A program made the translations under genes and the position numbers. Positions 1-23,703 of a stretch of DNA of 23,703 bases are shown here, piece by piece. Origin of the DNA: a virus (taxonomy: Duplodnaviria; Heunggongvirae; Uroviricota; Caudoviricetes); IMG/VR virus record IMGVR_UViG_2585427753_000011; one strand, 5' to 3'. Position 1 is the stretch's first letter, and every line of letters starts with the position of its first letter. The notes under the pieces were generated by a model. That model ran no database searches, was not told the DNA's origin, and saw nothing but the letters and a program-made list of their open reading frames with translations.

Positions 1-981
1 TTATAACGTCACTCCGCCTTTTAGTGGATTCAGAGCGACGGCATTTTGCAGATAGTCAGGCGCAAGGTGCGCATAGGCCATCGTCTGCTGAATGCTCGCA
101 TGTCCCAGAATCTGTTGCAGTGCGATTATATTGCCCCCATTCATCATGAAATGGCTTGCGAATGTATGCCGCAGGATGTGGGTTGCCTGATTGGGTGGTA
201 TATCAGGTTTCACTCTGCGTAAAATCCCGCAAAATTTCTCATAATCAACTTTGAATAATTTGGCGCTGGCCTCCTCTTTAACTTTTTTCTCCAGTTCCTC
301 AGAAATCGGCACGGTTCGCTTTTTACCGTTTTTGGTTTTCAGGAAGGTAACCCTGCAATTTGTAATCTGTGCTGGTTTTAGCGTGGCAACTTCCGTCCAT
401 CTTCCTCCAGTGCTCAGACATAAAAGCGCGACAAGTAAGTCATCACCAGCCAAAACATTTAACAGTTTTTCGATTTCTGCTTTTTCCAGGAACGTCATTT
501 CAGGGTTGGCTTCCGCCAGTGGCGGCAGTCCGTGAATTGGGTGTTGCCCGGAAAATTCATCCAATTGAATTAATTTTGTGAACATGCCGGATAATCGGTA
601 CATGTCACGGTTTATCGTTGCGGCACTGATACCATCACGTAGTCGCATGGAACGATAATCCATCAAAGCCCTTTTGCTCATCCTGCTCACTGGTATATCA
701 CCTATGCCGCTGATGGTTTTGAGTAGATGATTAAACTCTTTTGTTCCATGCTCGTGGTTTTGCCCGTGATATTTCCACCAGATGTCCAGCAACTCACTCA
801 AAGTCCGGCGGTCTGCTCGCTGGCCTCCCCATTCTTTCTGACTGGCATTGGCGATTGTGTATCGCTCAAATGCTAGTGCTTCAGCTTTTCTTTCGAATTT
901 CCTGCGGATGCGTTTTCCGTCGCGGCCGCGAGGTCTAATGTCCACTTCATAGCGACCATCATCGAGCTTCTTAATTGCCAT
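1..981 (-). CDS. int: P2-like tyrosine integrase
   Basis: ORF 1..1011 translation carries a C-terminal tyrosine-recombinase region (HxLRHTFA...LGH...MAYAH) and the P2 Int-like N-terminus MAIKKLDDGRYEVD. I place the start at the internal ATG (979-981), which has a GGAGGG Shine-Dalgarno ~7 nt upstream; the ATG at 1009-1011 has none. Stop codon is at window positions 1-3. Confidence 0.9.
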   Translation of the reverse strand: MAIKKLDDGRYEVDIRPRGRDGKRIRRKFERKAEALAFERYTIANASQKEWGGQRADRRTLSELLDIWWKYHGQNHEHGTKEFNHLLKTISGIGDIPVSRMSKRALMDYRSMRLRDGISAATINRDMYRLSGMFTKLIQLDEFSGQHPIHGLPPLAEANPEMTFLEKAEIEKLLNVLAGDDLLVALLCLSTGGRWTEVATLKPAQITNCRVTFLKTKNGKKRTVPISEELEKKVKEEASAKLFKVDYEKFCGILRRVKPDIPPNQATHILRHTFASHFMMNGGNIIALQQILGHASIQQTMAYAHLAPDYLQNAVALNPLKGGVTL

Positions 982-1050
982 AAGAAAGCCCTCCGGCGCT
1001 GTATTCACCATCTTGGTAGCAAATGGTGAAAATGTAATCTTTATATAGAG

Positions 1051-1344
1051 TTAGCCAATCCTTTTCGCGGAGTGGTTGGACTCTGTTGACTCTGGCCCAA
1101 TGTGCGCGAGAGCCGGTGCGATTTGTCCTGCGTCCGGCGCGGTTTTATCTGTCATAAGCCATAGAGCATATTTTTGGAATGTGGGATGCATAGTGATTTT
1201 TAGCAAAGCTGTGCCACCAGGTTCAAAGTTTCCTCCTTCATATTTTTTAAGTGTGCTTAGTGGTAAGTCTATGATTTCACAGAATTTTGATTGGCTTAGC
1301 CCTTCAGCCTCACGCAAGGCCTTAATCTTTTCGCTTAATTTCAT
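1051..1344 (-). CDS. C: Immunity repressor C (XRE-type HTH)
   Basis: 97-aa ORF divergent from cox, between int and cox as in P2; N-terminal HTH-like segment (LSQSKFCEIIDLPLSTLKKYE). Confidence 0.8.
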   Translation of the reverse strand: MKLSEKIKALREAEGLSQSKFCEIIDLPLSTLKKYEGGNFEPGGTALLKITMHPTFQKYALWLMTDKTAPDAGQIAPALAHIGPESTESNHSAKRIG

Positions 1345-1465
1345 TTGACATGGTGCCTATATAGGGACTAAATTCCCTCAAAACTGGAACCTATATAGGT
1401 TCCATTGATTTGAGAATAAACCAGCGTCTAAACGGTTTTGAGTGGTTTAGAAAGGGCTGGATCCT
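1345..1465. promoter_or_regulatory. C/cox immunity switch region with two CCTATATAGG palindromes and a TTGACA hexamer
   Basis: Palindrome CCTATATAGG at 1356-1365 and again at 1390-1399 (second extends to GGAACCTATATAGGTTCC, 1386-1403); TTGACA at 1345-1350. Lies between divergent C and cox. Confidence 0.5.
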
Positions 1466-1753
1466 ATGAGGGTACCATATATGGACGCTGAAAATTATGT
1501 GATTCAGTATCCGCTGGACGCGGTTCATGTGGATAAATTTGCTGATTTATTAGGGAAGCCAAAGACAGCCGTCAGTGAAATGGTGAAGGCAAATAAATTA
1601 CCAATTATTGAATTACGTGATCCTTGCAAACCGAAGGCTCGTGCCGGTGAAAAATGGGTTTTCATTCCTGAGTTTAATCGCGCTGTACGTGAGGCGTTTT
1701 ATAACCGACCGGTTGAACAGCGTGATGCATGGCTTTTGTGGATGGGGTTGTGA
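1466..1753 (+). CDS. cox: Cox (excisionase / transcriptional switch protein)
   Basis: 95-aa ORF in the P2 cox position; resembles P2 Cox. Start could instead be the ATG at 1481. Confidence 0.8.
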   Translation: MRVPYMDAENYVIQYPLDAVHVDKFADLLGKPKTAVSEMVKANKLPIIELRDPCKPKARAGEKWVFIPEFNRAVREAFYNRPVEQRDAWLLWMGL

Positions 1754-1755
1754 TT

Positions 1756-1926
1756 ATGAATGAGCCGCGTTGTATTGCTCAGTTATTGCGTAACGAAAGC
1801 CCCAGGGTGATTGACTTCACCATCACCCACGGGAAGGGACGCAAGGGAATCATTATCCGCACCAAAAAACAGAGTCCGTTAAAGAAGGCTCTGACCTTTC
1901 TGAAAAGCCGGAGGGTCTGGAAATGA
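1756..1926 (+). CDS. Small hypothetical protein (P2 orf78-like position)
   Basis: ORF 1729..1926; start chosen at internal ATG 1756 (MNEPRCIAQ...) just past the cox stop; stop overlaps B start (ATGA). Confidence 0.5.
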   Translation: MNEPRCIAQLLRNESPRVIDFTITHGKGRKGIIIRTKKQSPLKKALTFLKSRRVWK

Positions 1927-2423
1927 CAGTGATGACGCTTAATCTCGTTGAAAAACAGCCAGCAGCTATGCGCCGGATAATTGGTAAGCATCTGGCCGTC
2001 CCTCGCTGGCAGGATACATGTGATTATTATAATCAGATGATGGAACGCGAACGGCTAACAGTTTGCTTTCATGCGCAGTTAAAACAACGTCATGCAACGA
2101 TGCGTTTTGAAGAAATGAACGACGTCGAACGTGAACGGCTGGTTTGTGCAATTGATGAATTGCGTGGGGCATTCTCAAAACGCCGTCAGGTTGGCGCAAG
2201 TGAGTATGCATATATTAGTTTTTTAACAGTCAGTCAGCGTCGTACTTTATTTATGCATGCCGGATTGACTGAAAAAGAATTCAACCAGCCATACTGGCGA
2301 ATTAATGAAGAGTCATGTTACTGGCGTGATGCTTTATTCCGTGCATTACGTGAATTATTCAGCCTGTTTGAGTATGCACCGACAATTCTGACGTCGGTAA
2401 AACCAGAGCAATATCTGCATTAA
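1923..2423 (+). CDS. B: Replication protein B (helicase-loader-like)
   Basis: 166-aa ORF, same length and position as P2 B. Confidence 0.85.
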   Translation: MTVMTLNLVEKQPAAMRRIIGKHLAVPRWQDTCDYYNQMMERERLTVCFHAQLKQRHATMRFEEMNDVERERLVCAIDELRGAFSKRRQVGASEYAYISFLTVSQRRTLFMHAGLTEKEFNQPYWRINEESCYWRDALFRALRELFSLFEYAPTILTSVKPEQYLH

Positions 2424-2486
2424 ATAATTAACCAGAGTTTTAAACGCACTTAATCGTGCGGGGCTTCTTTTTGCCTGGAGAAAGTC

Positions 2487-2711
2487 ATGCATACAGTTTC
2501 TGAAAATCAGTGCGGTAAATACGCATTACTGCTGCAACAGGCCAGAACCGAAGCACAGGCTGACGCTGCGACGCGCTTTTCTTCTCATCTTGACGCCATG
2601 ATTCGCCATATCACAAAGGCGGAGTTATCCCGCGTGGAGATAGTCGAGCTACTCAGTCAGGAGTCGGAAAAATTTCACAATATCGGATTGTCTCGCGGGG
2701 AGGGGCTTTGA
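2487..2711 (+). CDS. Hypothetical early protein (P2 orf80-like)
   Basis: 74-aa ORF in conserved position; stop overlaps next start. Confidence 0.6.
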
Positions 2712-3010
2712 TGTCCTGTTCTCATTCAGTTGTATTACTGAATAACGCCTTAAAAATCGCCGTTATGAAAAATGGCGATTTGTCTCTTATCCAACTTTGT
2801 CTTGATAAAGAAAAACGCGACATCACTGAATCTGTTATCGCGATTTATCAGAGCGAATTAAACCTCCTGTCTGATGTGATCAATTTACTTGTGAAACGCG
2901 CTGTATTCCACAAGCAAATTTCCTCAGTGGATGAACTGACAAAATTAACGACAGAACTCGCCAGTTATTGCGCTGATGTATCCAGGAAACTTAACGATAA
3001 AAGGAGCTGA
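2708..3010 (+). CDS. Hypothetical early protein (P2 orf81-like)
   Basis: 100-aa ORF, translationally coupled to neighbours. Confidence 0.6.
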
Positions 3011-3012
3011 TA

Positions 3013-3237
3013 ATGCCGGACAACGTAGATTTTATTCAGGAACAACAGGCTGAATTACTGGAGCGCCAGATTAACGCGGCAAGGGTAAAACATTGCGGTG
3101 TTTCTTCGCTGGTTTGCGAAGAGTGTGACGCTCCAATACCTGCTGCCCGTCGTGCGGCTTATCCGTCAGCCACGCGTTGTGTTTCCTGTCAGTCAGTCTT
3201 TGAAGCAAAAAACAAACATTACCGGAGAACGGCATGA
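3013..3237 (+). CDS. TraR/DksA-family C4 zinc-finger protein (P2 orf82-like)
   Basis: 74 aa with CxxC...CxxC (CEECDAPIP...CVSCQ), typical of phage TraR/DksA-like zinc fingers. Confidence 0.75.
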   Translation: MPDNVDFIQEQQAELLERQINAARVKHCGVSSLVCEECDAPIPAARRAAYPSATRCVSCQSVFEAKNKHYRRTA

Positions 3238-3509
3238 GTATTCGTATTGAAATTGGCGAACGTTATGTCGTTACCAGTGACAGCTTTCAGTTTATTCTCC
3301 ACGAGAAAAAGAGAGCGGAAAGCGGTAAAAACGCCGGTCAGGAATGGCTGGCGGTGGTTGGTTATTACCCGAAATTAAGCCAGCTCGTTTCCGGCCTGAT
3401 GCATCACGATATTCTGACCGGAAGCGCAAAGTCTTTTGCTGATTTAAACGGGCAGGTTGAGCAACTCAGCAAGCGTTGTTCAGAGGCTTTTGGCTCATAT
3501 GGCCGTTAA
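3234..3509 (+). CDS. Hypothetical early protein (P2 orf83-like)
   Basis: 91-aa ORF; stop overlaps the A start. Confidence 0.6.
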   Translation: MSIRIEIGERYVVTSDSFQFILHEKKRAESGKNAGQEWLAVVGYYPKLSQLVSGLMHHDILTGSAKSFADLNGQVEQLSKRCSEAFGSYGR

Positions 3510-5778
3510 AGCCTCCGGGCGTTTTGTCCCTCCGTCAGCATTTGCCGCAGGCACCGGTAAGACGTTTACCGGTGCTTATGCATGGAACGCGCCACGCGAG
3601 GCCGTCGGGCGCGAAAGACCCCTTACACGTGACGAGATGCGTCAGGTGCAAGGTGTTTTATCCACGATTAACCGCCTGCCTTACTTTTTGCGTTCGCTGT
3701 TTACTTCACGCTATGACTACATCCGGCGCAATAAAAGCCCGGTGCACGGGTTTTATTTCCTCACATCCACTTTTCAGCGTCGTTTATGGCCGCGCATTGA
3801 GCGCGTGAATCAGCGCCATGAAATGAACACCGACGCGTCGTTACTGTTTCTGGCAGAGCGTGACCACTATGCGCGCCTGCCGGGAATGAATGACAAGGAG
3901 CTGAAAAAATTTGCCGCCCGTATCTCATCGCAGCTTTTCATGATGTATGAGGAACTCTGCGATGCCTGGGTGGATGCCCATGGCGAAAAAGAATCGCTGT
4001 TTACGGATGAGGCGCAGGCTCACCTGTATGGTCATGTTGCTGGCGCTGCACGTGCTTTCAATATTTCCCCGCTCTACTGGAAAAAATACCGTAAAGGACA
4101 GATGACCACGAGGCAGGCATATTCTGCCATTGCCCGCCTGTTTAACGATGAGTGGTGGACTCATCAGCTTAAAGGCCAGCGTATGCGCTGGCATGAGGCG
4201 TTACTGATTGCTGTCGGGGAGGTCAATAAAGACCGTTCTCCTTATGCCAGTAAACATGCCATTCGTGATGTGCGTGCACGCCGCCAGGCAAATCTGGAAT
4301 TTCTTAAATCGTGTGACCTTGAAAACAGGGAAACCGGCGAGCGCATCGACCTTATCAGTAAGGTGATGGGCAGTATTTCTAATCCTGAAATTCGCCGGAT
4401 GGAGCTGATGAACACCATTGCCGGTATTGAGCGTTACGCCGCAGCAGAGGGTGATGTGGGGATGTTTATCACGCTGACCGCGCCGTCAAAGTATCACCCG
4501 ACACGTCAGGTCGGAAAAGGCGAAAGTAAAACCGTCCAGCTAAATCACGGCTGGAACGATGAGGCATTTAATCCAAAGGATGCGCAGCGTTATCTCTGCC
4601 ATATCTGGAGCCTGATGCGCACGGCATTCAAGGATAATGATTTACAGGTCTACGGTTTGCGTGTCGTCGAGCCACACCACGACGGAACGCCGCACTGGCA
4701 TATGATGCTTTTTTGTAATCCACGCCAGCGTAACCAGATTATTGAAATCATGCGTCGCTATGCGCTCAAAGAGGATGGCGACGAAAGAGGAGCCGCGCGA
4801 AACCGTTTTCAGGCAAAACACCTTAACCGGGGCGGTGCTGCGGGATATATCGCGAAATACATCTCAAAAAACATCGACGGCTATGCACTGGATGGTCAGC
4901 TCGATAATGATACCGGTAGGCCGCTGAAAGACACAGCTGCGGCTGTTACCGCATGGGCGTCAACGTGGCGCATTCCGCAATTTAAAACGGTTGGTCTGCC
5001 GACAATGGGGGCTTACCGTGAACTACGCAAATTGCCTCGCGGCGTCAGCATTGCTGATGAGTTTGACGAGCGCGTCGAGGCTGCACGCGCCGCTGCAGAC
5101 AGTGGTGATTTTGCGTTGTATATCAGCGCGCAGGGCGGGGCAAATGTCCCGCGCGATTGTCAGACTGTCAGGGTCGCCCGTAGCCCGTCGGATGACGTTA
5201 ACGAGTACGAGGAAGAAGTCGAGAGAGTGGTCGGCATTTACGCGCCGCATCTCGGCGCGCGTCATATTCATATCACCAGAACGACGGACTGGCGCATTGT
5301 TCCGAAAGTGCCGGTCGTTGAGCCTTTGACTTTAAAAAGCGGCATCGCCGCGCCTCGGAGTCCTGTCAATAACTGTGGAAAGCTCACCGGTGGTGATACT
5401 TCGTTACCGGCTCCCACACCTTCTGAGCACGCCGCAGCAGTGCTTAATCTGGTTGATGACGGTGTTATTGAATGGAATGACCAGGAGGTCGTGAGGGCGC
5501 TCAGGGGCGCATTAAAACGAGGTCTGAGAAGACCAAACCGTCAGCAAAGAAACGGAAGCCCGTTAAAACAGCATGAAATGGCACCATCGGCCAGACTGAC
5601 CCGGTCAGAACGAATGCAAATTACCCGTATCCGCGTTGACCTTGCTCAGAACGGTATCAGGCCGCAGCGATGGGAGCTTGAGGCGCTGGCGCGTGGAGCA
5701 ATTGTAAATTACGACGGGAAAAAATTCACGTATCCAGTCGCTGATGAGTGGCGGGGATTCTCAGCAGTAATGGAGTGA
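3499..5778 (+). CDS. A: Replication initiation endonuclease A (rolling-circle HUH endonuclease)
   Basis: Track ORF 3457..5778; start set at ATG 3499 (MAVKASGRF...) by resemblance to the P2 gpA N-terminus and coupling to the upstream stop. Contains a histidine-rich HUH-type motif (HHDGTPHWHMMLF). Confidence 0.9.
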   Translation: MAVKASGRFVPPSAFAAGTGKTFTGAYAWNAPREAVGRERPLTRDEMRQVQGVLSTINRLPYFLRSLFTSRYDYIRRNKSPVHGFYFLTSTFQRRLWPRIERVNQRHEMNTDASLLFLAERDHYARLPGMNDKELKKFAARISSQLFMMYEELCDAWVDAHGEKESLFTDEAQAHLYGHVAGAARAFNISPLYWKKYRKGQMTTRQAYSAIARLFNDEWWTHQLKGQRMRWHEALLIAVGEVNKDRSPYASKHAIRDVRARRQANLEFLKSCDLENRETGERIDLISKVMGSISNPEIRRMELMNTIAGIERYAAAEGDVGMFITLTAPSKYHPTRQVGKGESKTVQLNHGWNDEAFNPKDAQRYLCHIWSLMRTAFKDNDLQVYGLRVVEPHHDGTPHWHMMLFCNPRQRNQIIEIMRRYALKEDGDERGAARNRFQAKHLNRGGAAGYIAKYISKNIDGYALDGQLDNDTGRPLKDTAAAVTAWASTWRIPQFKTVGLPTMGAYRELRKLPRGVSIADEFDERVEAARAAADSGDFALYISAQGGANVPRDCQTVRVARSPSDDVNEYEEEVERVVGIYAPHLGARHIHITRTTDWRIVPKVPVVEPLTLKSGIAAPRSPVNNCGKLTGGDTSLPAPTPSEHAAAVLNLVDDGVIEWNDQEVVRALRGALKRGLRRPNRQQRNGSPLKQHEMAPSARLTRSERMQITRIRVDLAQNGIRPQRWELEALARGAIVNYDGKKFTYPVADEWRGFSAVME

Positions 5779-6019
5779 ACGTCGCCCGTTGCGAAAATTA
5801 TTTACAGGGGGCAGCGTTAAGCATCTAAAGATCTTGTTCTATGATTAGAATGTTTCCTCGTTGCACTCTCGTATAGTTATTTAATGGGAAGATGTACTCT
5901 ATATGTTGTGTTTTGGTGATAAATGAAGCCAAAGGAAGGAGATTTTGCTTGATTGATGGGCGCTCTTTGCTATACACCTTGTATTGAGAAGGAGAAGTAA
6001 TCAAGGATTAAGCTGGCTT

Positions 6020-6073
6020 TTGTCAAAAATCTGAAAAGCTTTTTTGACTGAATACGATAGCGAGTTGTACTAT
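6020..6073 (+). promoter_or_regulatory. Candidate sigma70 promoter with overlapping inverted repeats upstream of the cargo membrane operon
   Basis: -35 TTGACT (6044-6049), 18-nt spacer, -10 TACTAT (6068-6073), ~35 nt upstream of ATG 6108. Inverted repeat GTCAAAAA (6022-6029) / TTTTTGAC (6041-6048) and palindrome AAAAGCTTTT (6034-6043) overlap the -35. Confidence 0.35.
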
Positions 6074-6107
6074 TTGCGCCCTCAAAAGTAACCGGCGGCT
6101 GGGTAAA

Positions 6108-6482
6108 ATGGGGAAGCAAGGCAAAGGCAAAGGCAACAAAAATCAGGTTAAGGTTACGTGGGCTCAGGCGTGGCGGGATGTAATGATAAGAGCCATGTCT
6201 AATGGTCAGTTGATACCTATTACCATCAGTATTATTTTAATGATTGCTGCATGGAGGTTACCAAAAACAGACTTGTCCAATTTAGCCTTCTCTATTGTTG
6301 ATGGCTTTAAGGAGCATTCCTTGGTTGGTTGGGCTATCTCGGTAATAGTGGGTTTGGCTTGGTCTGCACATGCGCGAATCATGAGGCGCTGTTTTAGTTC
6401 CGAGGCACAGAGAATCGGTAACGAGAAAACAAAGTATCAACAAAGACAGACCACTCAAGCCTTGGGTACAAGTGATAAATAG
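6108..6482 (+). CDS. Cargo gene 1: small two-transmembrane-helix protein with Lys/Gly-rich N-terminus
   Basis: 124-aa ORF; two hydrophobic segments (LIPITISIILMIAAW; LVGWAISVIVGLAWSAHA). Weak SD, so start is uncertain (alternative Met at 6183/6195). AT-rich relative to backbone. Confidence 0.6.
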   Translation: MGKQGKGKGNKNQVKVTWAQAWRDVMIRAMSNGQLIPITISIILMIAAWRLPKTDLSNLAFSIVDGFKEHSLVGWAISVIVGLAWSAHARIMRRCFSSEAQRIGNEKTKYQQRQTTQALGTSDK

Positions 6483-6502
6483 TTGTTTATTTAGGAGTTA
6501 TT

Positions 6503-7060
6503 ATGCTGACAGTGCTGTTTTATGTGCTGTTGGGTTTAGGCGCAGCACACTTCATTTACGAGCGAATCATTTTGCCGTCCATCCGACTTCATTATAGAAA
6601 CCAATTGTTTGCGCTTCGTGATGTCGCTAGGAGGAAAATCATTGATGGAGGTTCCGATACTTCCATGCAAGCGGCAACACTTGTGCATGACTCATTGAAT
6701 AACGCTATCAATAGATTGCATTTACTCACGTTGCCAAACAAATTTCGTGCTCAAAAGCGTATGGCAGAAAACCATGCAATAAGGCAGAAAATTCGGCGTG
6801 AGATAGATGTTTTCAAACGCTGTGATGATAGAGAAGTTGTTGATGTACTGTTTAAATCCGGTCGGATACTTGAAAATGTACTGTTATTCAATAGCTTAAT
6901 GTTATTGCTTTACATGTTTCCATTTGTCCTTGCTGTATGGTTCTGTGTTAGGGTCATAAAGACAGCAAGTAGTTTAGTACAGTGGGTCAAAGGAAGAGAT
7001 TTAGAGGAAGCTATAATGCTGCTTCCTGATACTCAGGTTGAAAAGGTTGTATACGCATAA
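6503..7060 (+). CDS. Cargo gene 2: membrane protein with N- and C-terminal hydrophobic helices
   Basis: 185-aa ORF with strong SD (AGGAG ~5 nt upstream); hydrophobic N-terminus (LTVLFYVLLGLGAAHFIY) and C-terminal segment (LLFNSLMLLLYMFPFVLAVWFCV) around a charged helical region; 20 nt after gene 1. Confidence 0.7.
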   Translation: MLTVLFYVLLGLGAAHFIYERIILPSIRLHYRNQLFALRDVARRKIIDGGSDTSMQAATLVHDSLNNAINRLHLLTLPNKFRAQKRMAENHAIRQKIRREIDVFKRCDDREVVDVLFKSGRILENVLLFNSLMLLLYMFPFVLAVWFCVRVIKTASSLVQWVKGRDLEEAIMLLPDTQVEKVVYA

Positions 7061-7088
7061 AAATCACCCCTTAGGGGGTGATTTTTTT
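7061..7088 (+). terminator. Rho-independent terminator ending the two-gene membrane operon
   Basis: Stem ATCACCCC (7063-7070) / GGGGTGAT (7075-7082), loop TTAG, followed by a T-run; immediately after the stop at 7060. Confidence 0.8.
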
Positions 7089-7299
7089 ACATGACTTTTG
7101 ATTAGCTGACATTGTAAATCCGCATGTATCAGATGCATTGTTTTGCATGTGGAAATGGGTGTTTTCACTGCCAGCTATCGCTACATGTAGCAAAAACACG
7201 GGCTTAATAAGAAATCATTCTGCCATAAGGCATAACTTCCCCGCGTGCTCAGGTATTGACGTCATAGATATGGATCTTTTTTAATCAAGGTATGGTATT

Positions 7300-8247
7300 A
7301 TGAAGATATTTATTAGTTGGTCAGGTCAGGACAGCCTGGAGATAGCAAAAGTATTACGGGATTGGATACCGAATGTTATTCAAGTAGCTGAGCCGTACGT
7401 ATCAGCGGAAGATATTGATAAAGGCACTCGCTGGGCGACTGATATATCAAAGGAACTTGATGACTCTTCTTATGGGATTATTTGCCTTACAAAAAATAAT
7501 ATTAATGCACCGTGGATAAATTTTGAGGCGGGTGCTTTAGGTAAAAAGGTTGATAAGAGCCGGGTTAGTCCTTTCTTGTTTAAAATTAAACCATCTGAGA
7601 TAACAGGCCCAATATTACAATTCCAGTATACTCGTTCGGATGATAAGAACGATATTTTGAAGTTGATGTTGTCAATAAATAATCAAGCAGGATTTTTGAC
7701 TGAAGAACGCTTAACTAAAGCTTTCGAGCAATGGTGGCCAAGTTTAGAGCGTGAGTTAGATAACATTCAAGATATTAACCCTGTAGATAAAGATTCCACT
7801 AAAAAAACAAAAGGTGATTCGACTTCTGAGATACAAAATCTTTCCAAAATTGTTGAAAGTTTGCTGGATATTAGCCGAACAAATCACCAATTATTGCGTG
7901 ATCCAGCATCATTATTGCCAGAAGAATATGTTAGCAAAATAATAAACAGGGAAGGGCGTAAAGAAACTGTTTTAAAAATTGTAGCTTCTGATTTATTATC
8001 CATGCATCATTCACTAATTCGTGTAAAAAGAAGATTTATTCGTCGTGGTATTGATGAAACATCTAGGAGCGAGTTAATTGAATCATTAAATAAAATGATA
8101 ATGGATTGTTCTAGAGTAATCGCTCACTTAGATAATTATTGTGGGGCTTCATCAAACAATATGTTCAATAGTGCGCTTAGATTGCGGACCAGAAATTTAA
8201 TTGACATGATGGATGAGGAGGATGCAGAACGGGATGAAATGGAATAA
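7300..8247 (+). CDS. Cargo gene 3: TIR-domain protein with uncharacterised C-terminal helical domain
   Basis: 315 aa. N-terminal ~130 aa has TIR hallmarks: KIFISWSGQDS first strand, GIICLT strand, and W-x-x-F-E-A-G motif (WINFEAGAL) aligning by eye with the catalytic-Glu region of bacterial TIR NADases. C-terminal ~170 aa has no motif I recognise. Own transcription unit. Confidence 0.75.
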   Translation: MKIFISWSGQDSLEIAKVLRDWIPNVIQVAEPYVSAEDIDKGTRWATDISKELDDSSYGIICLTKNNINAPWINFEAGALGKKVDKSRVSPFLFKIKPSEITGPILQFQYTRSDDKNDILKLMLSINNQAGFLTEERLTKAFEQWWPSLERELDNIQDINPVDKDSTKKTKGDSTSEIQNLSKIVESLLDISRTNHQLLRDPASLLPEEYVSKIINREGRKETVLKIVASDLLSMHHSLIRVKRRFIRRGIDETSRSELIESLNKMIMDCSRVIAHLDNYCGASSNNMFNSALRLRTRNLIDMMDEEDAERDEME

Positions 8248-8298
8248 TCAATTTTGACTAATCATAAATAATTTTGCATATATAAACTTATAATGCCG

Positions 8299-8321
8299 CA
8301 GCCGCTATTTTTCAGCGGCTG
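8299..8321 (+). other. Stem-loop downstream of the TIR gene (possible weak terminator or RNA structure)
   Basis: CAGCCGCT (8299-8306) / AGCGGCTG (8314-8321), 7-nt loop ATTTTTC; no U-tract after the stem. Confidence 0.3.
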
Positions 8322-8791
8322 TATATCGCTTATAATGGGTATGTTATTTTTATTTTGATAAAATCATTAAAATTGTCGATGTTATATGAATGCACATGTA
8401 TTATTAATGTTAGAAGATTATGCCTGCTTACGGCTATTGTGCTGAATTCAACTATGAACGCATCAGTATTAAAATCGTTCCATGAAATGTTCTTCGTCTA
8501 CAGCAGATGATGGGCAACGAAAAAATGACGCTGAGTGAGTTGGTCGGGGAGAATTGTTAGAGGTATTTATGGAGTGGTTTAATAATATCGGTCAATCCTG
8601 AGTTGCAGCATCACATAGACGATAGGGAATCTCTCCAGTCGTTCTGGAATGGCAGCGTTGAACAACAAGCACAGCGAGGCGTTAGATGCCCATCAGATTG
8701 ACACAGAGGGTTTATGAATCGCTGGGATTTACTTAGTTTGAAAAATAATATATTTATATGTTTTTGTATTGTGTTTGTTAAGGAGTTTGGA

Positions 8792-8998
8792 TTGAAAAGA
8801 AAACTGATTTGTGTTATGGCTTTTTGGGGGGCGTTGCTGGCTGGTTGTAATGAGAGTAATAAAAAAGAAGTTGAGGGTTGTATTGAAAGAGGTGTCCAAT
8901 ATTTTATAGAGATTGGTTCTTACCCTAAATTAAGTGATGGGCGTGATGCTGTAAAAGTTGCTACTGAACGTTGTAATAGAACAATAACGGCTTTCTGA
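8792..8998 (+). CDS. Cargo gene 4: small predicted lipoprotein (lipobox LLAGC)
   Basis: Track ORF 8714..8998 has an improbable N-terminus. An in-frame TTG at 8792 follows AGGAG (8781-8785, 6-nt spacer) and gives (M)KRKLICVMAFWGALLAG-C: a basic n-region, hydrophobic core and lipobox Cys. Mature protein ~49 aa. Confidence 0.6.
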   Translation: MKRKLICVMAFWGALLAGCNESNKKEVEGCIERGVQYFIEIGSYPKLSDGRDAVKVATERCNRTITAF

Positions 8999-9000
8999 TA

Positions 9001-9918
9001 ATGGATTATACGAGCTATATAATAGGACAGCTTCAGGTTGAGGATATTATTGATGCAATTAAAGGCGTTAATAATACTAATGTCATAAAAGATTATGTGC
9101 TGCCTGTAGTATTACCAATTATATCTTCTGTGCTGAGTTACTTTATTGCAACTAGGTTGTTTTATCGGCAGGAGGACCTTAAAGCACAAAGAAGAAAGGT
9201 AAGCGTTGTAAATAAATGTATTTATGACTACTTTTCTGCAATGACAACGTTGTTGCAAATTAAAGGGAATTATTATGGTGGGGTAAGTATAAGTGAAAAT
9301 CCTATCGAGAGGGCTTTAGCTTTTCCTGTTGTGGTTTTTTCTGGTGCTCCTCTATCATCAGATTTAAGTGAGTTGGCCTGTATATTGAGTCAAAAGGGAG
9401 TAGGGAATAATAGAGAGCCAGCAAAGACTACTAACTGGGGGGATGCTTTTGCTGTTAGTGATATAGCAAGAAGGTTTAACAGCCTATTGGCTGCATTAAA
9501 TGTTAGGAATGATTTTGATGACACCTATAGAGGAATGATTATTGAATCAACAGGTTCACCTTTGCCTACGATGCGTTTTAAAAATGATGATATTGTTAAT
9601 GCTATAGGTAGTAATAAGGCAGCTTATTACATTGATATTACTGAGCAAATAATGATTATGATAGATGTTTTGTTGCTTGATATTAATCTGTTGCTCAAAG
9701 AGTTGCCATTGTATGCTGAATCGCTGTTTGACAAAAGAGTAATGCAAGAAGATTCAGGGATTCTTAAATTCAATGATTTGCACGAACGTTTTCCTCTACT
9801 TATGAAACCTGTAACGCCACCTTCGATTAAACTCATGTCTGATTATTTGGGGTACAGTGAAGATGAGATCTTACGACGCTATCCATACCCGTTCTTTAAT
9901 ATGCATGATTGTGAATGA
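9001..9918 (+). CDS. Cargo gene 5: 305-aa protein with one N-terminal transmembrane helix, no recognisable domain
   Basis: Starts 2 nt after the lipoprotein stop (translational coupling). Hydrophobic segment VLPVVLPIISSVLSYFIATRLF near the N-terminus; AT-rich codon usage. Confidence 0.7.
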   Translation: MDYTSYIIGQLQVEDIIDAIKGVNNTNVIKDYVLPVVLPIISSVLSYFIATRLFYRQEDLKAQRRKVSVVNKCIYDYFSAMTTLLQIKGNYYGGVSISENPIERALAFPVVVFSGAPLSSDLSELACILSQKGVGNNREPAKTTNWGDAFAVSDIARRFNSLLAALNVRNDFDDTYRGMIIESTGSPLPTMRFKNDDIVNAIGSNKAAYYIDITEQIMIMIDVLLLDINLLLKELPLYAESLFDKRVMQEDSGILKFNDLHERFPLLMKPVTPPSIKLMSDYLGYSEDEILRRYPYPFFNMHDCE

Positions 9919-10021
9919 ATGTGCATATGTCAGAAGCCGTTTTTATTGTCAGTTATCGTCAGTGCTGGCGCGCTCTTGGAGTGTTCATGCAACTGCATTA
10001 AAACCGCCCCACGAAGCGGGC

Positions 10022-10040
10022 GGGCGAGGCGGGGAAAGCA
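10022..10040. other. Probable cos cohesive-end site
   Basis: GGCGAGGCGGGGAAAGCAC at 10022-10040 matches the P2 19-nt cohesive end as I recall it; in a GC-rich non-coding stretch just upstream of portal Q, where cos lies in P2. Confidence 0.6.
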
Positions 10041-10170
10041 CTGCGCGCTGGCGGTGGTGATGATTGTCTGAGCGCGTCGTGATGGCGTTTAGATTGTGCG
10101 CCGGGGCGTTGGTGTGTCTGCGGGGTGTTTTGTACAGTGGCGAGCGTGTGAGGGCGTGATGACGGGGGTG

Positions 10171-11233: not shown

Positions 11234-11979
11234 CAGTAAAACTCCAGAATGGTGGATGTCAGCGGGGTGCTGATACCGGCGGTGAGTGGCTCATTTAACA
11301 GGGCGTGCATGGTCGCCCAGGCGAGGTCGGCGTGGCTGGCTTCCTCGCTACGGCTGGCCTCATAGGTGGCGCTGCGTCCGCTGCTGGTCATGGTCTTGCG
11401 GATAGCCATGAACGAGCTGGTGATGTCGGTGGCGCTGCGTCCGCTGCTGGTCATGGTCTTGCGGATAGCCATGAACGAGCTGGTGATGTCGGTGGCGCTG
11501 CGTCCGCTGCTGGTCATGGTCTTGCGGATAGCCATGAACGAGCTGGTGATGTCGGTGGCGCTGCGTCCGCTGCTGGTCATGGTCTTGCGGATAGCCATGA
11601 ACGAGCTGGTGATGTCGGTGGCGCTGCGTCCGCTGCTGGTCATGGTCTTGCGGATAGCCATGAACGAGCTGGTGATGTCGGTGGCGCTGACGTCATATTC
11701 CAGACAGCCACGGCGGATGACGTCTTTTGCCTTGAGCACCATTGCGGTTTTCATTTCCGGCGTGTAGCGGATATCGCGTGCGGCGGGATAGAACGAGCGC
11801 ACGAGCTGGAACACGCCGACACCGAGGCCGGTGGCATCAATTCCGATGTATTCGACGTTGTATTTTTCGGTGAGTTTGCGGATGGATTCCGCCTGAGTGG
11901 CAAAGTCCATGCCTTTCCACTGGTGACGCTCAAGTATTCTGAATTTACCTCCGGCCACCACCGGCGGTGCCAGCACCAC
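11233..11979 (-). pseudogene. P: Terminase large subunit P, C-terminal remnant with internal tandem-repeat expansion
   Basis: 248-aa frame that opens at GTG with no upstream gene context. Reads as the C-terminal part of P2 terminase ATPase/nuclease, plus four extra 21-aa repeat copies. N-terminal ~400 aa absent; upstream sequence runs straight into endolysin K. Confidence 0.8.
11368..11682. repeat. Perfect 63-bp tandem repeat, 5 copies, in-frame within the terminase remnant
   Basis: GGCGCTGCGT recurs at 11368, 11431, 11494, 11557, 11620, then partially at 11683; on the minus strand this encodes SATDITSSFMAIRKTMTSSGR x5. Copies are identical by eye. Confidence 0.9.
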
Positions 11980-11995
11980 GCATCCGGCGCTGGCC

Positions 11996-17678: not shown

Positions 17679-19724
17679 ATGAGCATAAAATTCAGAACCG
17701 TTATCACCACTGCCGGTGCAGCAAAGCTGGCAGCGGCAACCGCGCCGGGAGGGCGGAAGGTCAACATTACCACGATGGCCGTCGGGGATGGCGGTGGTAA
17801 ATTGCCTGTCCCGGATGCCGGACAGACCGGGCTTATCCATGAAGTCTGGCGACATGCGCTGAACAAAATCAGCCAGGACAAACGAAACAGTAATTATATT
17901 ATCGCCGAGCTGGTTATTCCGCCGGAGGTGGGCGGTTTCTGGATGCGTGAGCTTGGCCTGTACGATGATGCGGGAACATTAATTGCCGTGGCGAACATGG
18001 CCGAAAGTTATAAGCCAGCTCTTGCCGAAGGCTCAGGGCGTTCGCAGACCTGTCGCATGGTCATCATCGTCAGCAGTGTGGCCTCAGTGGAGCTGACCAT
18101 TGACACCACAACGGTGATGGCGACTCAGGATTACGTTGATGACAAAATTGCAGAGCATGAACAGTCACGACGTCACCAGGACGCCTCGCTGACCGCAAAA
18201 GGTTTTACTCAGTTAAGCAATGCGACCAACAGCACGTCTGAAACACTGGCCGCAACGCCGAAAGCGGTTAAGGCCGCATATGACCTTGCTAACGGGAAAT
18301 ATACCGCACAGGACGCTACCACAGCGCGAAAAGGTCTTGTCCAGCTAAGTAGTGCGACCAACAGCATATCTGAAACGCTCGCCGCAACACCAAAAGCCGT
18401 TAAGACGGTAATGGATGAAACGAACAAGAAAGCGCCATTAAACAGCCCTGCACTGACCGGAACGCCAACGACGCCAACTGCGCGACAGGGAACGAATAAT
18501 ACTCAGATCGCAAACACGGCTTTCGTTATGGCCGCGATTGCCGCCCTTGTAGACTCGTCGCCTGACGCACTGAATACGCTGAACGAGCTGGCGGCGGCGC
18601 TGGGCAATGACCCGAATTTTGCTACCACCATGACTAATGCGCTTGCGGGTAAGCAACCGAAAGATGCCACTTTGACGGCGCTGGCGGGGCTTGCTACTGC
18701 GGCAGACAGGTTTCCGTATTTTACGGGGAATGATGTTGCCAGCCTGGCGACCCTGACAAAAGTCGGGCGGGATATTCTGGCTAAATCGACCGTTGCCGCT
18801 GTTATCGAATATCTCGGTTTACAGGAAACGGTAAACCGAGCCGGGAACGCCGTGCAAAAAAATGGCGATACTTTGTCCGGCGGGCTTACTTTTGAAAACG
18901 ACTCAATCCTTGCCTGGATTCGAAATACTGACTGGGCGAAGATTGGATTTAAAAATGATGCCGATGGTGACACTGATTCATATATGTGGTTTGAAACAGG
19001 TGACAACGGCAATGAATATTTCAAATGGAGAAGTCGCCAGAGCACCACAACAAAAGACCTGATGAATCTTAAATGGGATGCTCTGTATGTTCTTGTTAAA
19101 GCCCTTTTCAGCAGTGAAGTAAAAATATCTACAGTCAATGCACTGAGGATATTTAATTCATCTTTTGGGGCTATTTTTCGCCGTTCTGAAGAAAACCTGT
19201 ATATCATTCCTACACGAGAAAATGAGGGTGAAAATGGAGATATTGGGCCATTAAGGCCATTCGGCATCAACTTAAGAACAGGAGTTGTGTCTGTTGGTAA
19301 TGGTGCCAGGATTGATGGCGGGCTGGCACTTGGCACGAATAACGCGTTGGGTGGGAACTCTATTGTTCTTGGTGATAACGACACCGGATTTAAACAAAAT
19401 GGCGATGGTAATCTGGATGTTTATGCTAATAACGTCCATGTTATGCGCTTTGTTTCCGGAAGCATTCAAAGTAATAAGACCATAAATATTACGGGGCGTG
19501 TTAATCCCTCGGATTACGGTAACTTTGATTCCCGCTATGTGAGAGATATCAGACTTGGCACACGTGTTGTCCAGACCATGCAGAAAGGGGTGATGTATGA
19601 GAAAGCAGGGCACGTAATTACCGGGCTTGGTATTGTCGGTGAAGTCGATGGTGATGACCCCGCAGTATTCAGGCCAATACAAAAATACATCAATGGCACA
19701 TGGTATAACGTCGCACAGGTGTAA
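17679..19724 (+). CDS. H: Tail fiber protein H
   Basis: 681 aa; conserved N-terminal tail-fiber region, internal repeated motif (...SETLAATPKAVK... twice), divergent C-terminal receptor-binding part. Confidence 0.9.
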   Translation: MSIKFRTVITTAGAAKLAAATAPGGRKVNITTMAVGDGGGKLPVPDAGQTGLIHEVWRHALNKISQDKRNSNYIIAELVIPPEVGGFWMRELGLYDDAGTLIAVANMAESYKPALAEGSGRSQTCRMVIIVSSVASVELTIDTTTVMATQDYVDDKIAEHEQSRRHQDASLTAKGFTQLSNATNSTSETLAATPKAVKAAYDLANGKYTAQDATTARKGLVQLSSATNSISETLAATPKAVKTVMDETNKKAPLNSPALTGTPTTPTARQGTNNTQIANTAFVMAAIAALVDSSPDALNTLNELAAALGNDPNFATTMTNALAGKQPKDATLTALAGLATAADRFPYFTGNDVASLATLTKVGRDILAKSTVAAVIEYLGLQETVNRAGNAVQKNGDTLSGGLTFENDSILAWIRNTDWAKIGFKNDADGDTDSYMWFETGDNGNEYFKWRSRQSTTTKDLMNLKWDALYVLVKALFSSEVKISTVNALRIFNSSFGAIFRRSEENLYIIPTRENEGENGDIGPLRPFGINLRTGVVSVGNGARIDGGLALGTNNALGGNSIVLGDNDTGFKQNGDGNLDVYANNVHVMRFVSGSIQSNKTINITGRVNPSDYGNFDSRYVRDIRLGTRVVQTMQKGVMYEKAGHVITGLGIVGEVDGDDPAVFRPIQKYINGTWYNVAQV

Positions 19725-19727
19725 TTT

Positions 19728-20255
19728 ATGCAGCATTTAAAAAATATTACTGCGGGTAATCCAAAAACTGTTGCCCAATATCAACTGACAAAAAATTTTG
19801 ATGTTATCTGGTTATGGTCCGAAGAGGGAAAAAACTGGTATGAGGAAGTAAGTAATTTTCAGGAAGACACGATAAAGATTGTTTACGACGAGAATAATAT
19901 AATTGTCGGCATCACCAGAGATGCTTCAACGCTTAACCCTGAAGGTTTCAGCGTTGTCGAGGTTCCTGATATTACCTCCAACCGACGTGCTGATGACTCA
20001 GGTAAATGGATGTTTAAGGATGGTGCCGTGATTAAGCGGATTTATACGGCAGATGAACAGGAGCAACAGGCAGAATCACAAAAAGCAGCTTTACTTTCCG
20101 AAGCGGAAAGCGTTATTCAGCCACTGGAACGCGCTGTCAGGCTGAATATGGCGACGGATGAGGAATGCGCACGACTGGAGTCATGGGAACGCTACAGCGT
20201 TCTGATCAGCCGTGTGGATCCTGCAAATCCTGAATGGCCGGAAATGCCGCAATAA
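19728..20255 (+). CDS. G: Tail fiber assembly chaperone G
   Basis: 175 aa, immediately after H, P2 gpG length. Confidence 0.85.
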
Positions 20256-20476
20256 GTTGTATAAGCTCTGGTGTGAGATTACATATCTATGGCACAGAGT
20301 AAAGCCTAATCTGACAGGCCGCTCTGTGTCTGGAGTAGATTTTAGTAAAGCATTATTTTATTAGTGCAAATTCTAATCAATACATTTTATGTATATGATA
20401 TCCTACGGACTTTAATGACTTGGTTTAGGCTAACCAGATAACACTGAAGGAATATTTTTGATAATTAAGGTGCGGT

Positions 20477-21070
20477 ATGTTTACTAAGCGACGATTAAAA
20501 AATATTAACTGGGAGGCAAGTTCAGTGATTCTTGCTATGGTTCTCTTTGTTGGAAATATATTTTATACAAATCATCGTGATGATATAAGCATGGAGGCTG
20601 AGAGGGACAGTATCAGAACAATGTTTGCATATGAAATCGCTAATAACCATCGCGCTCTCACTTTTCTTGATAAAACGAGACATATTGGCTTTGACGAAAA
20701 TTCGGAGCATTTTGTTGGCGAGCCTTTTGCCATTAATGTCAAATCATTAGGGGGACCTCGCTTACAGATTGCATTAAACCAGACTGATAAAGTGTTTAAA
20801 TCCTACTTCGGCGAATTAAGTAAGCTTGATAAAGAGGATGTTACTCTTCTTATGGACTATTACCATGAGCAAAGCATCCTGCTGGAGCGTGTAAAATCTA
20901 CGTTACAGAAGATGAAAAGTGGTAATGATATTAAAGTTGATATTGATGGTTGCTTATTAGAAGAACACTTCATGAATGAGCTTAATCTTTCTAATATTTT
21001 GCTTAAACGCTATAGCTATTTATTATCACAACACGCTAAGGAACATAAAACAAAAGATTTACATAATTGA
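20477..21070 (+). CDS. AT-rich moron at the P2 Z/fun position: 197-aa protein with one N-terminal TM helix, unknown function
   Basis: ORF between G and the FI remnant, where P2 carries Z/fun; AT-rich flanks; hydrophobic segment SSVILAMVLFVGNIFY near the N-terminus. Confidence 0.65.
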   Translation: MFTKRRLKNINWEASSVILAMVLFVGNIFYTNHRDDISMEAERDSIRTMFAYEIANNHRALTFLDKTRHIGFDENSEHFVGEPFAINVKSLGGPRLQIALNQTDKVFKSYFGELSKLDKEDVTLLMDYYHEQSILLERVKSTLQKMKSGNDIKVDIDGCLLEEHFMNELNLSNILLKRYSYLLSQHAKEHKTKDLHN

Positions 21071-21258
21071 TAATCTGCTAATGGTTATTCATGGGGTAAC
21101 TATGTTTTATATGTAATCCAGCCCAGATGAATTATTGATTCTGGATAATAACCGCAGAGCGGCATATACCCTGACAGGCAAATGTCCGCTTCTTGCTCAA
21201 AGCAGACTGTCAGATTTGATAACTTTTGGGCTATGTAAACTGTCAGTCGGAAAATGAG

Positions 21259-21276
21259 TGTGTACAAATCAGGACA
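21259..21276 (+). promoter_or_regulatory. Candidate Ogr-dependent late promoter element (TGT-N12-ACA) upstream of the FI remnant
   Basis: TGTgtacaaatcaggACA at 21259-21276, ~125 nt upstream of the FI start codon; dyad of the type described for P2 late promoters. Confidence 0.4.
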
Positions 21277-21399
21277 GGCGGGGGGAATGCCCGCATTTTC
21301 TTTATCTGTTGTTTCATCCACTGACCAGCCAGGTCAAATAGCGTCTCATGTACTACCCAACGGAAAATAGTTGCACCCATTAACCACGGAGTTAAACGG

Positions 21400-21513
21400 A
21401 TGAGTGACTATCATCACGGCGTGCAGGTGCTGGAGATTAACGACGGCACCCGCGTCATTTCCACCGTATCCACAGCCATTGTCGGCATGGTCTGCACGGC
21501 TAGCCTCCCGTAA
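21400..21513 (+). pseudogene. FI: Tail sheath FI, N-terminal fragment (~35 codons) ending at a deletion junction
   Basis: ATG 21400 with GGAG SD encodes [35 protein letters not shown], which I recognise as the P2 sheath N-terminus; frame then hits TAA at 21511-21513. Confidence 0.75.
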
Positions 21514-22264
21514 CAGGCTGGAAGCCAGTGTCGCTCCGTCACTGGCCGGAATTAAAATCCCGCACATCGACCAGTCGCAGGAGTCCGATGCGAAATTCCT
21601 GACCCGTCTTGCTGAACGCAACGGCGGTGAGGTGTCGGTAAAAATGGGAAAACTGCTGTTTCTCAAAGCGGGGCAGGGGGGGACGGTCAGCGGTAAAAAA
21701 ATCCCGCAGATTACCATCACCCGCAGCGACGGCGACCGTCATCATTTTGCGATTGCTGACCGTGGAGCCTACACAGGCGTAACGGCAAAGTGGTTACACA
21801 CCAAAGACCCGAAGCCGCAAAAGCAGAAGGTAAAACTGAAACGCAAAAAGAAAGAGAAACACCTGCGCGCACTGGAGCACCCGAAAGCGAAACCGGTCAC
21901 GCAGAAGAAAGAGCCAAAAGTACCGGAAGCGCGCGAAGGTGAATACATGGCCGGTGAGGCTGACAACGTTTTTGCCCTGACCACGGTATATGCCACGAAA
22001 GCACAGGCCATGCGCGCCGCTCAGGCGAAGTGGGATAAACTGCAACGGGGTGTTGCGGAGTTCTCCATCAGCCTGGCTACTGGTCGGGCAGATATTTACA
22101 CGGAAACGCCGGTCAGAGTGTCAGGCTTTAAGCGCGTCATAGACGAGCAGGACTGGACAATCACTAAGGTGACACATTTTCTGAATAATAGCGGCTTCAC
22201 GACGTCCCTGGAGCTTGAGGTCAGGCTTTCTGATGTGGAGTACGAAACAGAAGATGATGAGTGA
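21506..22264 (+). pseudogene. D: Tail protein D, C-terminal ~250 aa, N-terminally truncated
   Basis: Track ORF 21404..22264 is an artefactual frame over the FI fragment; from about [22 protein letters not shown]... it reads as the C-terminal part of P2 gpD, ending ...EYETEDDE. No start codon or SD. Confidence 0.75.
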
Positions 22265-22345
22265 TGTAATTTATTTATCTGTTTGTTTTATAAGGATAAA
22301 TTAACTAAAATGGCACCATCAACAAAACCGGAAGAGGTGCTCGCG

Positions 22346-22564
22346 ATGTTTCATTGTCCTTTATGCCAGCATGCCGCACATGCGCGTACAAGCCGCTATA
22401 TCACTGACACGACAAAAGAGCGTTATCACCAGTGTCAGAACGTGAATTGCAGCGCCACGTTCATCACTTATGAGTCGGTACAGCGATACATCGTGAAGCC
22501 GGGAGAAGTCCATGCCGTAAGGCCGCACCCGTTGCCGTCAGGACAGCAAATTATGTGGATGTAA
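22346..22564 (+). CDS. ogr: Late gene activator Ogr (zinc-finger)
   Basis: Start at ATG 22346 gives 72 aa MFHCPLCQHAAHARTSRYITDTT...CQNVNC..., the P2 Ogr sequence as I recall it; track ORF 22283 has an N-terminal extension. Confidence 0.9.
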   Translation: MFHCPLCQHAAHARTSRYITDTTKERYHQCQNVNCSATFITYESVQRYIVKPGEVHAVRPHPLPSGQQIMWM

Positions 22565-22574
22565 TCACAAAAAT

Positions 22575-22600
22575 AGCCCCTCAGTTGAGGGGCTTTATTT
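22575..22600 (+). terminator. Rho-independent terminator after ogr
   Basis: Stem AGCCCCTC (22575-22582) / GAGGGGCT (22587-22594), loop AGTT, then TTATTT. Confidence 0.75.
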
Positions 22601-22692
22601 ATGGTCGATGTGGACGCTATGTGGACAGCGTTTGATATAAATCCATTTATATCATCAGGTTAGGTGCTTTTTTGTGACACCATCCCTGTCTT

Positions 22693-22719
22693 CCCCCACA
22701 TGATGTGGGGGTTTTTTTT
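22693..22719 (+). terminator. Terminator-like hairpin plus T-run in the prophage-host junction (attR vicinity)
   Basis: CCCCCAC (22693-22699) / GTGGGGG (22705-22711), then an 8-nt T-run (22712-22719); between ogr and host fieF. Confidence 0.6.
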
Positions 22720-22800
22720 ATCCTCAATTTGCCTGCTGCTTAATGCATTGCAGATGATTTGCTTCCGTTATACTACCGTCAGTTGATAGCGGGAGTATTT

Positions 22801-23703
22801 ATGAATCAATCTTATGGACGGCTGGTCAGTCGGGCGGCGATTGCTGCGACGGCGATGGCTTCGCTGCTATTGCTGATTAAAATTTTTGCATGGTGGTATA
22901 CCGGGTCGGTGAGTATTCTCGCCGCGCTGGTGGATTCGCTGGTGGATATCGGCGCGTCGTTGACGAATTTACTGGTGGTGCGATATTCCCTGCAACCTGC
23001 CGACGATAATCACTCGTTTGGTCACGGTAAAGCTGAGTCCCTCGCGGCGCTGGCGCAAAGTATGTTTATCTCCGGTTCGGCACTATTCCTGTTTTTGACG
23101 GGTATTCAACATCTGGTATCTCCAACACCGATGACAGATCCAGGCGTCGGGGTTATCGTGACAATTGTGGCGCTAATTTGTACGATTATCCTTGTCTCGT
23201 TTCAGCGTTGGGTGGTGCGCCGGACGCAAAGCCAGGCGGTGCGGGCTGATATGCTACATTACCAGTCTGATGTTATGATGAACGGCGCAATTCTGCTGGC
23301 GCTGGGGTTGTCCTGGTACGGCTGGCATCGCGCCGATGCTCTGTTTGCATTGGGGATCGGCATCTATATTTTATATAGCGCGTTACGCATGGGATATGAG
23401 GCGGTACAGTCATTACTGGATCGCGCATTGCCTGATGAGGAACGGCAAGAAATTATTGATATCGTGACTTCCTGGCCGGGTGTTAGCGGCGCTCACGATC
23501 TTCGCACGCGGCAGTCAGGGCCGACCCGCTTTATTCAGATTCATTTGGAAATGGAAGACTCTCTGCCTTTGGTTCAGGCACATATGGTGGCGGATCAGGT
23601 AGAGCAGGCTATTTTACGGCGTTTTCCGGGATCGGATGTGATTATCCATCAGGACCCCTGTTCCGTCGTACCCAGGGAGGGTAAACGGTCTATGCTTTCA
23701 TAA
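22801..23703 (+). CDS. fieF: Host cation-diffusion-facilitator iron/zinc efflux transporter FieF (YiiP)
   Basis: Track ORF 22759..23703; start at ATG 22801 gives 300 aa [25 protein letters not shown]..., which I recognise as E. coli-type FieF; six-TM N-terminal domain plus cytoplasmic C-terminal domain. Confidence 0.9.

Follow-up and report, generated by a model that had tools for sequence, protein, structure and literature searches.

An out-of-frame junction between the sheath gene FI and gene D in a P2-like Escherichia coli prophage is very probably the scar of an internal deletion

In the window, by which we mean the whole stretch of 23,703 nucleotides of viral DNA analyzed here, the tail sheath gene FI starts as in P2 and then breaks off close to where a different reading frame takes over as the C-terminal part of gene D. 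The locus raises the question of whether a piece of the late operon has truly been deleted, how the two ends came to be joined, and what kind of element remains. An earlier note had read an FI start codon with a Shine-Dalgarno sequence (SD) at 21400, about 35 sheath residues and a stop at 21511–21513, and all of these are seen in the sequence, the translation and the alignment (Table 1).

The junction between FI and D

A base-level three-way alignment of the window with P2_AC1 and the intact E. coli prophage VG12A2 reveals a single breakpoint. Upstream of it, positions 21350–21500 are 100% identical to the FI start of VG12A2 and differ from FI of P2_AC1 at 2 positions, and FI homology then ends. 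Downstream of it, the window is colinear with P2_AC1 gene D from nt 401 onward, with 99.8% identity over 1222 nt. When 21501–22300 was compared by megablast with 50,697 phage records, the best match was Escherichia phage P2_AC1 (99.8%), and the matches covered the 3' two thirds of P2-like genes annotated as tail protein or gene D protein. Identities of 97–100% over hundreds of bases are well above chance. Neither FI nor D homology is continuous over 21490–21515, the interval in which the earlier note had placed the break; the note was right that D is read in a different frame, and its onset of D homology at about 21506 is corrected by the alignment to 21501.

With the parental bases at the break deduced from VG12A2 on the FI side and from a different relative, AC1, on the D side, base 21501 is T as in D where FI has C, AGC at 21502–21504 is common to both parents, and from 21505 the window matches D alone. 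Sharing in register is thus limited to G at position -2 and AGC at +2 to +4, and a GC-ATTGT-G similarity near the break in a MAFFT alignment is 9 nt out of register. No direct repeat or perfect microhomology was found in the parental sequences around the two ends; a search for repeats, which had been suggested as a check, yields just the imperfect AGC one base past the break. Every base at the junction can be assigned to FI or D, with no extra bases, insertion-sequence end or cassette remnant.

The missing interval measures 5438 bp in both P2_AC1 and VG12A2. According to the annotation of the intact relatives, it comprises the remainder of FI, all of FII, E/E', T and U, and D codons 1–133: the annotated order is FI (sheath), FII, E, T, U, D and ogr in P2_AC1, and sheath, tube, tail assembly protein, GpE, tape measure, tail protein, late control D and OgrK in the RefSeq record of VG12A2. 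A tblastn search of the whole window with all 42 AC1 proteins gave no match for FII, E, T or U. The loss of these genes, put at about 5 kb from the reading of the sequence alone, is therefore borne out at a slightly larger size.

Because 5438 is not a multiple of three (3n+2), the reading frame changes at the break: FI nt 1–101 are followed directly by D nt 401, so that FI terminates after 37 codons and the D remnant (D') is left in the +1 frame. The FI remnant (FI') retains 35 of the 396 sheath residues, of which A34 and S35 are preserved merely since the D-side TAGC completes the same codons; it lacks a full-length sheath domain, and the stub has no Pfam match. The region upstream of FI, including a dyad that we take to be a candidate Ogr-dependent late promoter (PF) element, is intact, so that Ogr-dependent transcription could still yield the FI' peptide. 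A scan of 21000–22400 for sigma-70 promoters returned zero sites, which says little, as P2 late promoters are activator-dependent.

The D' remnant retains 764 nt and 253 residues of D, in agreement with the C-terminal stretch of roughly 250 residues proposed earlier. Its match to PF05954 (Phage_GPD baseplate hub) covers profile positions 113–304 of 305; positions 1–112 are missing, and D' has neither a complete hub domain nor a translation start of its own. After the FI' stop there is no in-frame start or SD before an internal ATG (about 21644), and inspection of the sequence ahead of TTG 21479 and GTG 21404 shows no SD besides that of the FI ATG. Since D' lacks an SD and a start of its own, we regard it as a probable untranslated pseudogene. 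With the D frame open as far back as 21404, a frameshift-mediated FI'-D' fusion was also considered; the sequence showed no slippery motif.

The D frame stays open by chance across the entire FI' stub, as an ORF running from GTG 21404 to TGA 22262–22264, which creates an annotation trap. Gene callers place a 261-aa Phage_GPD protein here, starting at TTG 21479 and overlapping FI'; the 261–286-aa "late control D" ORF called here should be read as a pseudogene fragment overlapping a 37-codon FI stub.

Table 1. Coordinates of features in the window
Feature	Position	Strand	Remarks
Three-gene TIR/transmembrane system (PADLOC 2TM-TIR, 1TM-TIR, TIR-TM)	6108–6482, 6503–7060, 7300–8247		A-Q hotspot; intact
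P2 cos 19-mer, GGCGAGGCGGGGAAAGCAC	10023–10041	+	Intact; coincides with the ends of the linear AC1 record
Companion deletion junction 1	11989–11992		P codon 423 onward (minus strand) joined to K codon 17
TGT-N12-ACA dyad upstream of FI	21259–21276	+	Regex scan; region gap-free colinear with P2_AC1
Terminator-like hairpin and T-run	21278–21303	+	After hotspot gene 20477–21070
Shine-Dalgarno GGAG of FI	21388–21391	+	8 nt before ATG; sequence
FI' remnant ORF	21400–21513	+	37 codons (35 sheath-identical, then Leu-Pro); TAA 21511–21513
Deletion junction 2	21500/21501		Last FI-derived base 21500, first D-derived base 21501; three-way alignments
D' remnant	21501–22264	+	D nt 401–1164, residues 135–387 and stop; +1 frame relative to FI', without own start
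ogr (late-gene activator)	22346–22564	+	Intact, 72 aa, 100% identical to AC1; PF04606 in sister loci
Host gene fieF	22801–23703	+	Phage homology ends at 22722, the right prophage end

The prophage around the junction

The blastn alignment to P2_AC1 covers window positions 1–22722 at 97–99.8% identity, and the whole window is colinear with P2_AC1 save for two deletions and one tandem array. Positions 1–10022 carry int, C, cox, B and A together with hotspot genes; after cos follow Q, the last 169 codons of P and the first deletion, then lysA, lysB, lysC, R, S, orf30, V, W, J, I, H, G, a hotspot gene and FI', and finally the second deletion, D', ogr and host fieF. This is the order of a P2-like (Peduovirus) prophage, int-C-cox-B-A, cos-Q-P, lysis-R-S-V-W-J-I-H-G-FI and D-ogr, with int and ogr at its opposite ends. 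An identical copy of the integrase adjoins cpxP-cpxRA in other genomes; the left junction lies outside the window, and because fieF follows on the right and the identical integrase is elsewhere found next to cpxP, we assign the attachment site to the cpxP-fieF intergenic region.

By tblastn, 31 of the 42 AC1 proteins are found in the window, 29 of them at full length. The genes outside both deletions, including int, C, cox, B, A and ogr, are full length with 93–100% amino-acid identity to AC1, which indicates recent lesions in a young defective prophage. The truncated genes are P, K, FI and D, and O, N, M, L, X, Y, FII, E, T and U have no homology in the window, so the gene set is not that of a functional, plaque-forming P2-like phage.

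The first deletion, which the earlier note had reported as a companion to the second, is likewise real. It removes about 5.3 kb, namely two thirds of P on its 5' side, the genes O, N, M, L, X and Y, and K codons 1–16, and its junction contains a 4-nt GCTG microhomology. Together the two deletions account for the loss of capsid, sheath, tube and tape measure that the note had described. Its statement that portal, baseplate and fibers were kept needs qualification: baseplate, fiber and portal genes are indeed present by tblastn with the AC1 proteins, but the portal gene survives as an ORF only, the Q operon being deprived of its upstream part (the 5' part of P) and presumably of the promoter in front of P, and the baseplate is retained in part, as D, itself the baseplate hub, is truncated.

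The A-Q hotspot holds three adjacent genes that fit three PADLOC models over full-length profiles, with E-values of 2e-58, 3e-75 and 2e-118, and whose proteins are 97.6–100% identical to those of AC1. A literature search under the name 2TM-1TM-TIR returned no match; the AC1 system is described in PMC9122126, where experiments demonstrated protection from lambda, LF82_P8 and P2, a result obtained for AC1 only.

Several smaller features of the prophage deserve mention. Within the truncated terminase gene P', on the minus strand, a 63-bp unit is present at 11365–11694 as five perfect copies plus 15 nt, in frame, with 21 aa per unit (SATDITSSFMAIRKTMTSSGR); phage AC1 has a single unit, flanked by a 10-nt direct repeat (GGTGGCGCTG). 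The array is present in one sister assembly (L005), and two others (L006 and L007) have one unit, so that it represents either a very recent amplification varying within the clone or a short-read assembly difference. The gene at 20477–21070 in the G-FI hotspot (Z/fun position) is 93.9% identical to AC1 gp21 and named "lysogenic conversion protein" in some RefSeq records; searches with Pfam and PADLOC gave no match to it. In the hairpin that follows, 21278–21294 differs at 21283, 21285 and 21287 from both sister assemblies and AC1 (GCGGGGGGAATGCCCGC in the window, GCGGGCGAATTGCCCGC in the others, the latter a perfect palindrome), and these three clustered differences reflect either a sequencing error in the hairpin or a template-switch mutation. 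Finally, identity to AC1 rises at the FI-D junction, from 95–97.6% in 20000–21500 to 99.5–100% in 21501–22700, so the D'-ogr-att segment has a different recent history from the G-hotspot-FI' segment.

Distribution and origin of the junction

With a 301-nt probe across the junction, pieces of FI or D were found in 1744 of 5426 complete E. coli genomes, and the junction itself in 0 of the 5426; the same holds for the first junction. Searches with the exact junction-spanning 21-mer returned no hit in GTDB species representatives, IMG/VR or JGI metagenomes. The closest complete-genome match to 19700–21500 is 96.9% identical, and a search with this segment found no undeleted parent of this exact prophage among complete genomes. 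Among NCBI draft E. coli contigs, however, six carry a call of the exact 37-aa FI' product and five one of the 261-aa D' product; drafts with the junction include GCA_000713035.1, GCA_000711525.1 and GCA_000714345.1. Each of the draft loci displayed has the same cpxP-fieF site, the same first deletion and a base-identical second junction, with 3–6 substitutions relative to the window in 12 kb. The survey of related genomes proposed by the earlier note thus gives a clear outcome: since the junction occurs in about six drafts and is missing from the surveyed sets, the scar is real and inherited in one small clone, and is neither a recurrent nor a widespread allele.

Based on these observations, we propose that, very probably, a P2-like (Peduovirus, AC1-type) prophage integrated at the cpxP-fieF site of E. 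coli lost 5438 bp in one spontaneous internal deletion, and that the junction is the scar of this event. As there is no usable homology between FI nt 101 and D nt 401, their joining would have been illegitimate, that is, homology-independent, and not the work of RecA-dependent recombination, site-specific recombination or transposition. Candidate routes are end joining after a double-strand break and a replication template switch. The element may also have a two-step history of successive, nested deletions.

The deletion strips the prophage of sheath, tube, the tail chaperones E/E', tape measure and U, and leaves no functional hub in the baseplate. From established P2 biology, tail assembly should be impossible, and in combination with the first deletion there should also be no heads, terminase, holin or endolysin. 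The two deletions together, with the head and lysis genes gone, would thus allow neither virions nor host lysis, and the remnant would be expected to persist as a harmless element still supplying immunity and the TIR anti-phage system. The deletion is in our view an ordinary early step of decay in a young, defective prophage.

An intramolecular deletion is not the only way to arrive at such a junction. Two P2-like genomes, a resident prophage and a superinfecting phage or a second prophage, could have been joined by illegitimate recombination, so that the left and right parts come from different parents. The abrupt step in AC1 identity at the junction would fit such an event, as would an FI stub that is 100% identical to VG12A2 but not to AC1. 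P2-like phages are, however, mosaic by ordinary homologous exchange, and a mosaic boundary located anywhere in the lost 5.4 kb accounts for the identity step equally well as an intermolecular join. Moreover, the genes are ordered and oriented exactly as in a single prophage, synteny is kept in the host flank (fieF, pfkA, sbp and further genes), and a defective prophage results in both cases. We therefore consider a two-parent origin unlikely.

A further alternative, somewhat less probable still, is that the deletion is functional and was selected, either for a new product (the 37-aa FI' or a D' re-initiated at TTG 21479 or at the ATG at about 21644) or as part of a domestication that turned the prophage into a defense island or a helper-dependent element. 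The open D frame and the annotated 261-aa protein speak for a new product, and domestication would be in keeping with regulatory, replication, cos and TIR defense functions that are all intact, the last of these belonging to a type of system proven protective in AC1 (PMC9122126). Yet neither TTG 21479 nor GTG 21404 has an SD of its own, D' lacks the first third of the hub domain, the restriction of the junction to one small clone gives no sign of spread or recurrent selection, and intact genes are expected simply from the youth of the lesions. Selection for a new product or domestication is thus possible but unsupported.

In a related and similarly improbable scenario, the doubly deleted element would be a stabilized P2-derived defense island that is mobile with help, a nascent satellite of its own helper lineage. 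The idea arises because int, cox, C, B, A, ogr, cos and the TIR system are all kept within about 22.8 kb; if it were true, a heteroimmune P2-like helper could support excision, replication and packaging of the element.

Very improbable, in turn, is an assembly artefact, in which a chimeric join of short-read contigs hides a prophage that is really intact. The sources are short-read draft assemblies, and the nearby 63-bp array varies between sister assemblies, so that assembly or real variation does exist; but the base-exact same junction lies within contigs of at least 150 kb in several separate assemblies, and FI nt 101 and D nt 401 have no common repeat that could mislead an assembler. Engineering can practically be dismissed: the break is spanned by GCTAGC, an NheI site, at 21498–21503, but the corresponding parental bases (GGCCAGC in FI, GATAGC in D) form an NheI site in neither parent, a cassette or scar is lacking, each breakpoint lies within a codon and the join is out of frame, and the sequence occurs in several draft genomes in ordinary chromosomal context.

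Relation to other P2-derived elements

The window resembles the Peduovirus late operon of P2 and P2_AC1 (FI-FII-E/E'-T-U-D and ogr) in genes, order and sequence (97–99.8% nt), and colinearity with P2_AC1 holds both for the beginning of FI with the region before it and for the 3' end of D with ogr; in contrast to P2_AC1, the window lacks the 5438 bp that separate FI nt 101 from D nt 401, and the operon is reduced to a 37-aa stub and an untranslatable D fragment.

Two classes of P2-related elements can be set aside. R-type tailocins, bacteriocins derived from P2 tails, also stem from P2-like prophages without head genes, but they keep sheath, tube and tape measure, and precisely these are deleted here; as a consequence, no contractile particle is possible, and the element is not a tailocin. 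P4-like and other satellites carry hijacking functions of their own (capsid-size redirection, genes for helper derepression or activation) and no structural genes, whereas all element DNA in the window is colinear with P2_AC1, which leaves no room for satellite genes, and baseplate, fiber and portal genes are still there. For annotation, where the value of the finding mainly lies, the prophage should be scored neither as an intact P2-like phage nor as a tailocin.

The prophage offers an example of early decay, with two clean deletions of about 5.4 kb in one clone and the rest intact, at a stage where the genes for immunity, replication and anti-phage defense are still whole. Defective P2-like prophages with conserved defense loci have been described (bioRxiv 10.64898/2026.02.27.708500), and these incomplete elements, like the window, carry defense genes near-identical to those of functional phages; relative to them, the window has two clean deletions and no further pseudogenes, which suggests an early stage. 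The wholeness of its defense genes agrees with current ideas on defense-gene stabilization in defective P2-like elements.

The same kind of decay is seen at its end stage in the cryptic prophage PR-X of E. coli K-12 (ogrK and yegZ, a D C-terminal pseudogene). Both are P2-type remnants that retain ogr and the D 3' end beside the right attachment site; PR-X is, however, a 0.6-kb relic at trhP/cyaR with 219 nt of D, whereas the element in the window spans about 22.8 kb at cpxP-fieF, has 764 nt of D and keeps all its other genes intact.

Finally, an independent FI-D deletion is present in a P2-like prophage of E. coli ZH177 (locus L004, NZ_CM125652.1, 3049–4442). There, as in the window, the 5' part of FI is fused to the 3' part of D, and tube, chaperones, tape measure and U are gone. 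The breakpoints differ, since FI extends to about codon 127 and D lacks only about 45 codons, as do the attachment site (trhP) and the content of the G-FI hotspot, which holds PIN and SIR2-family genes. As this independent deletion has other breakpoints, losses between FI and D recur among P2-like prophages.
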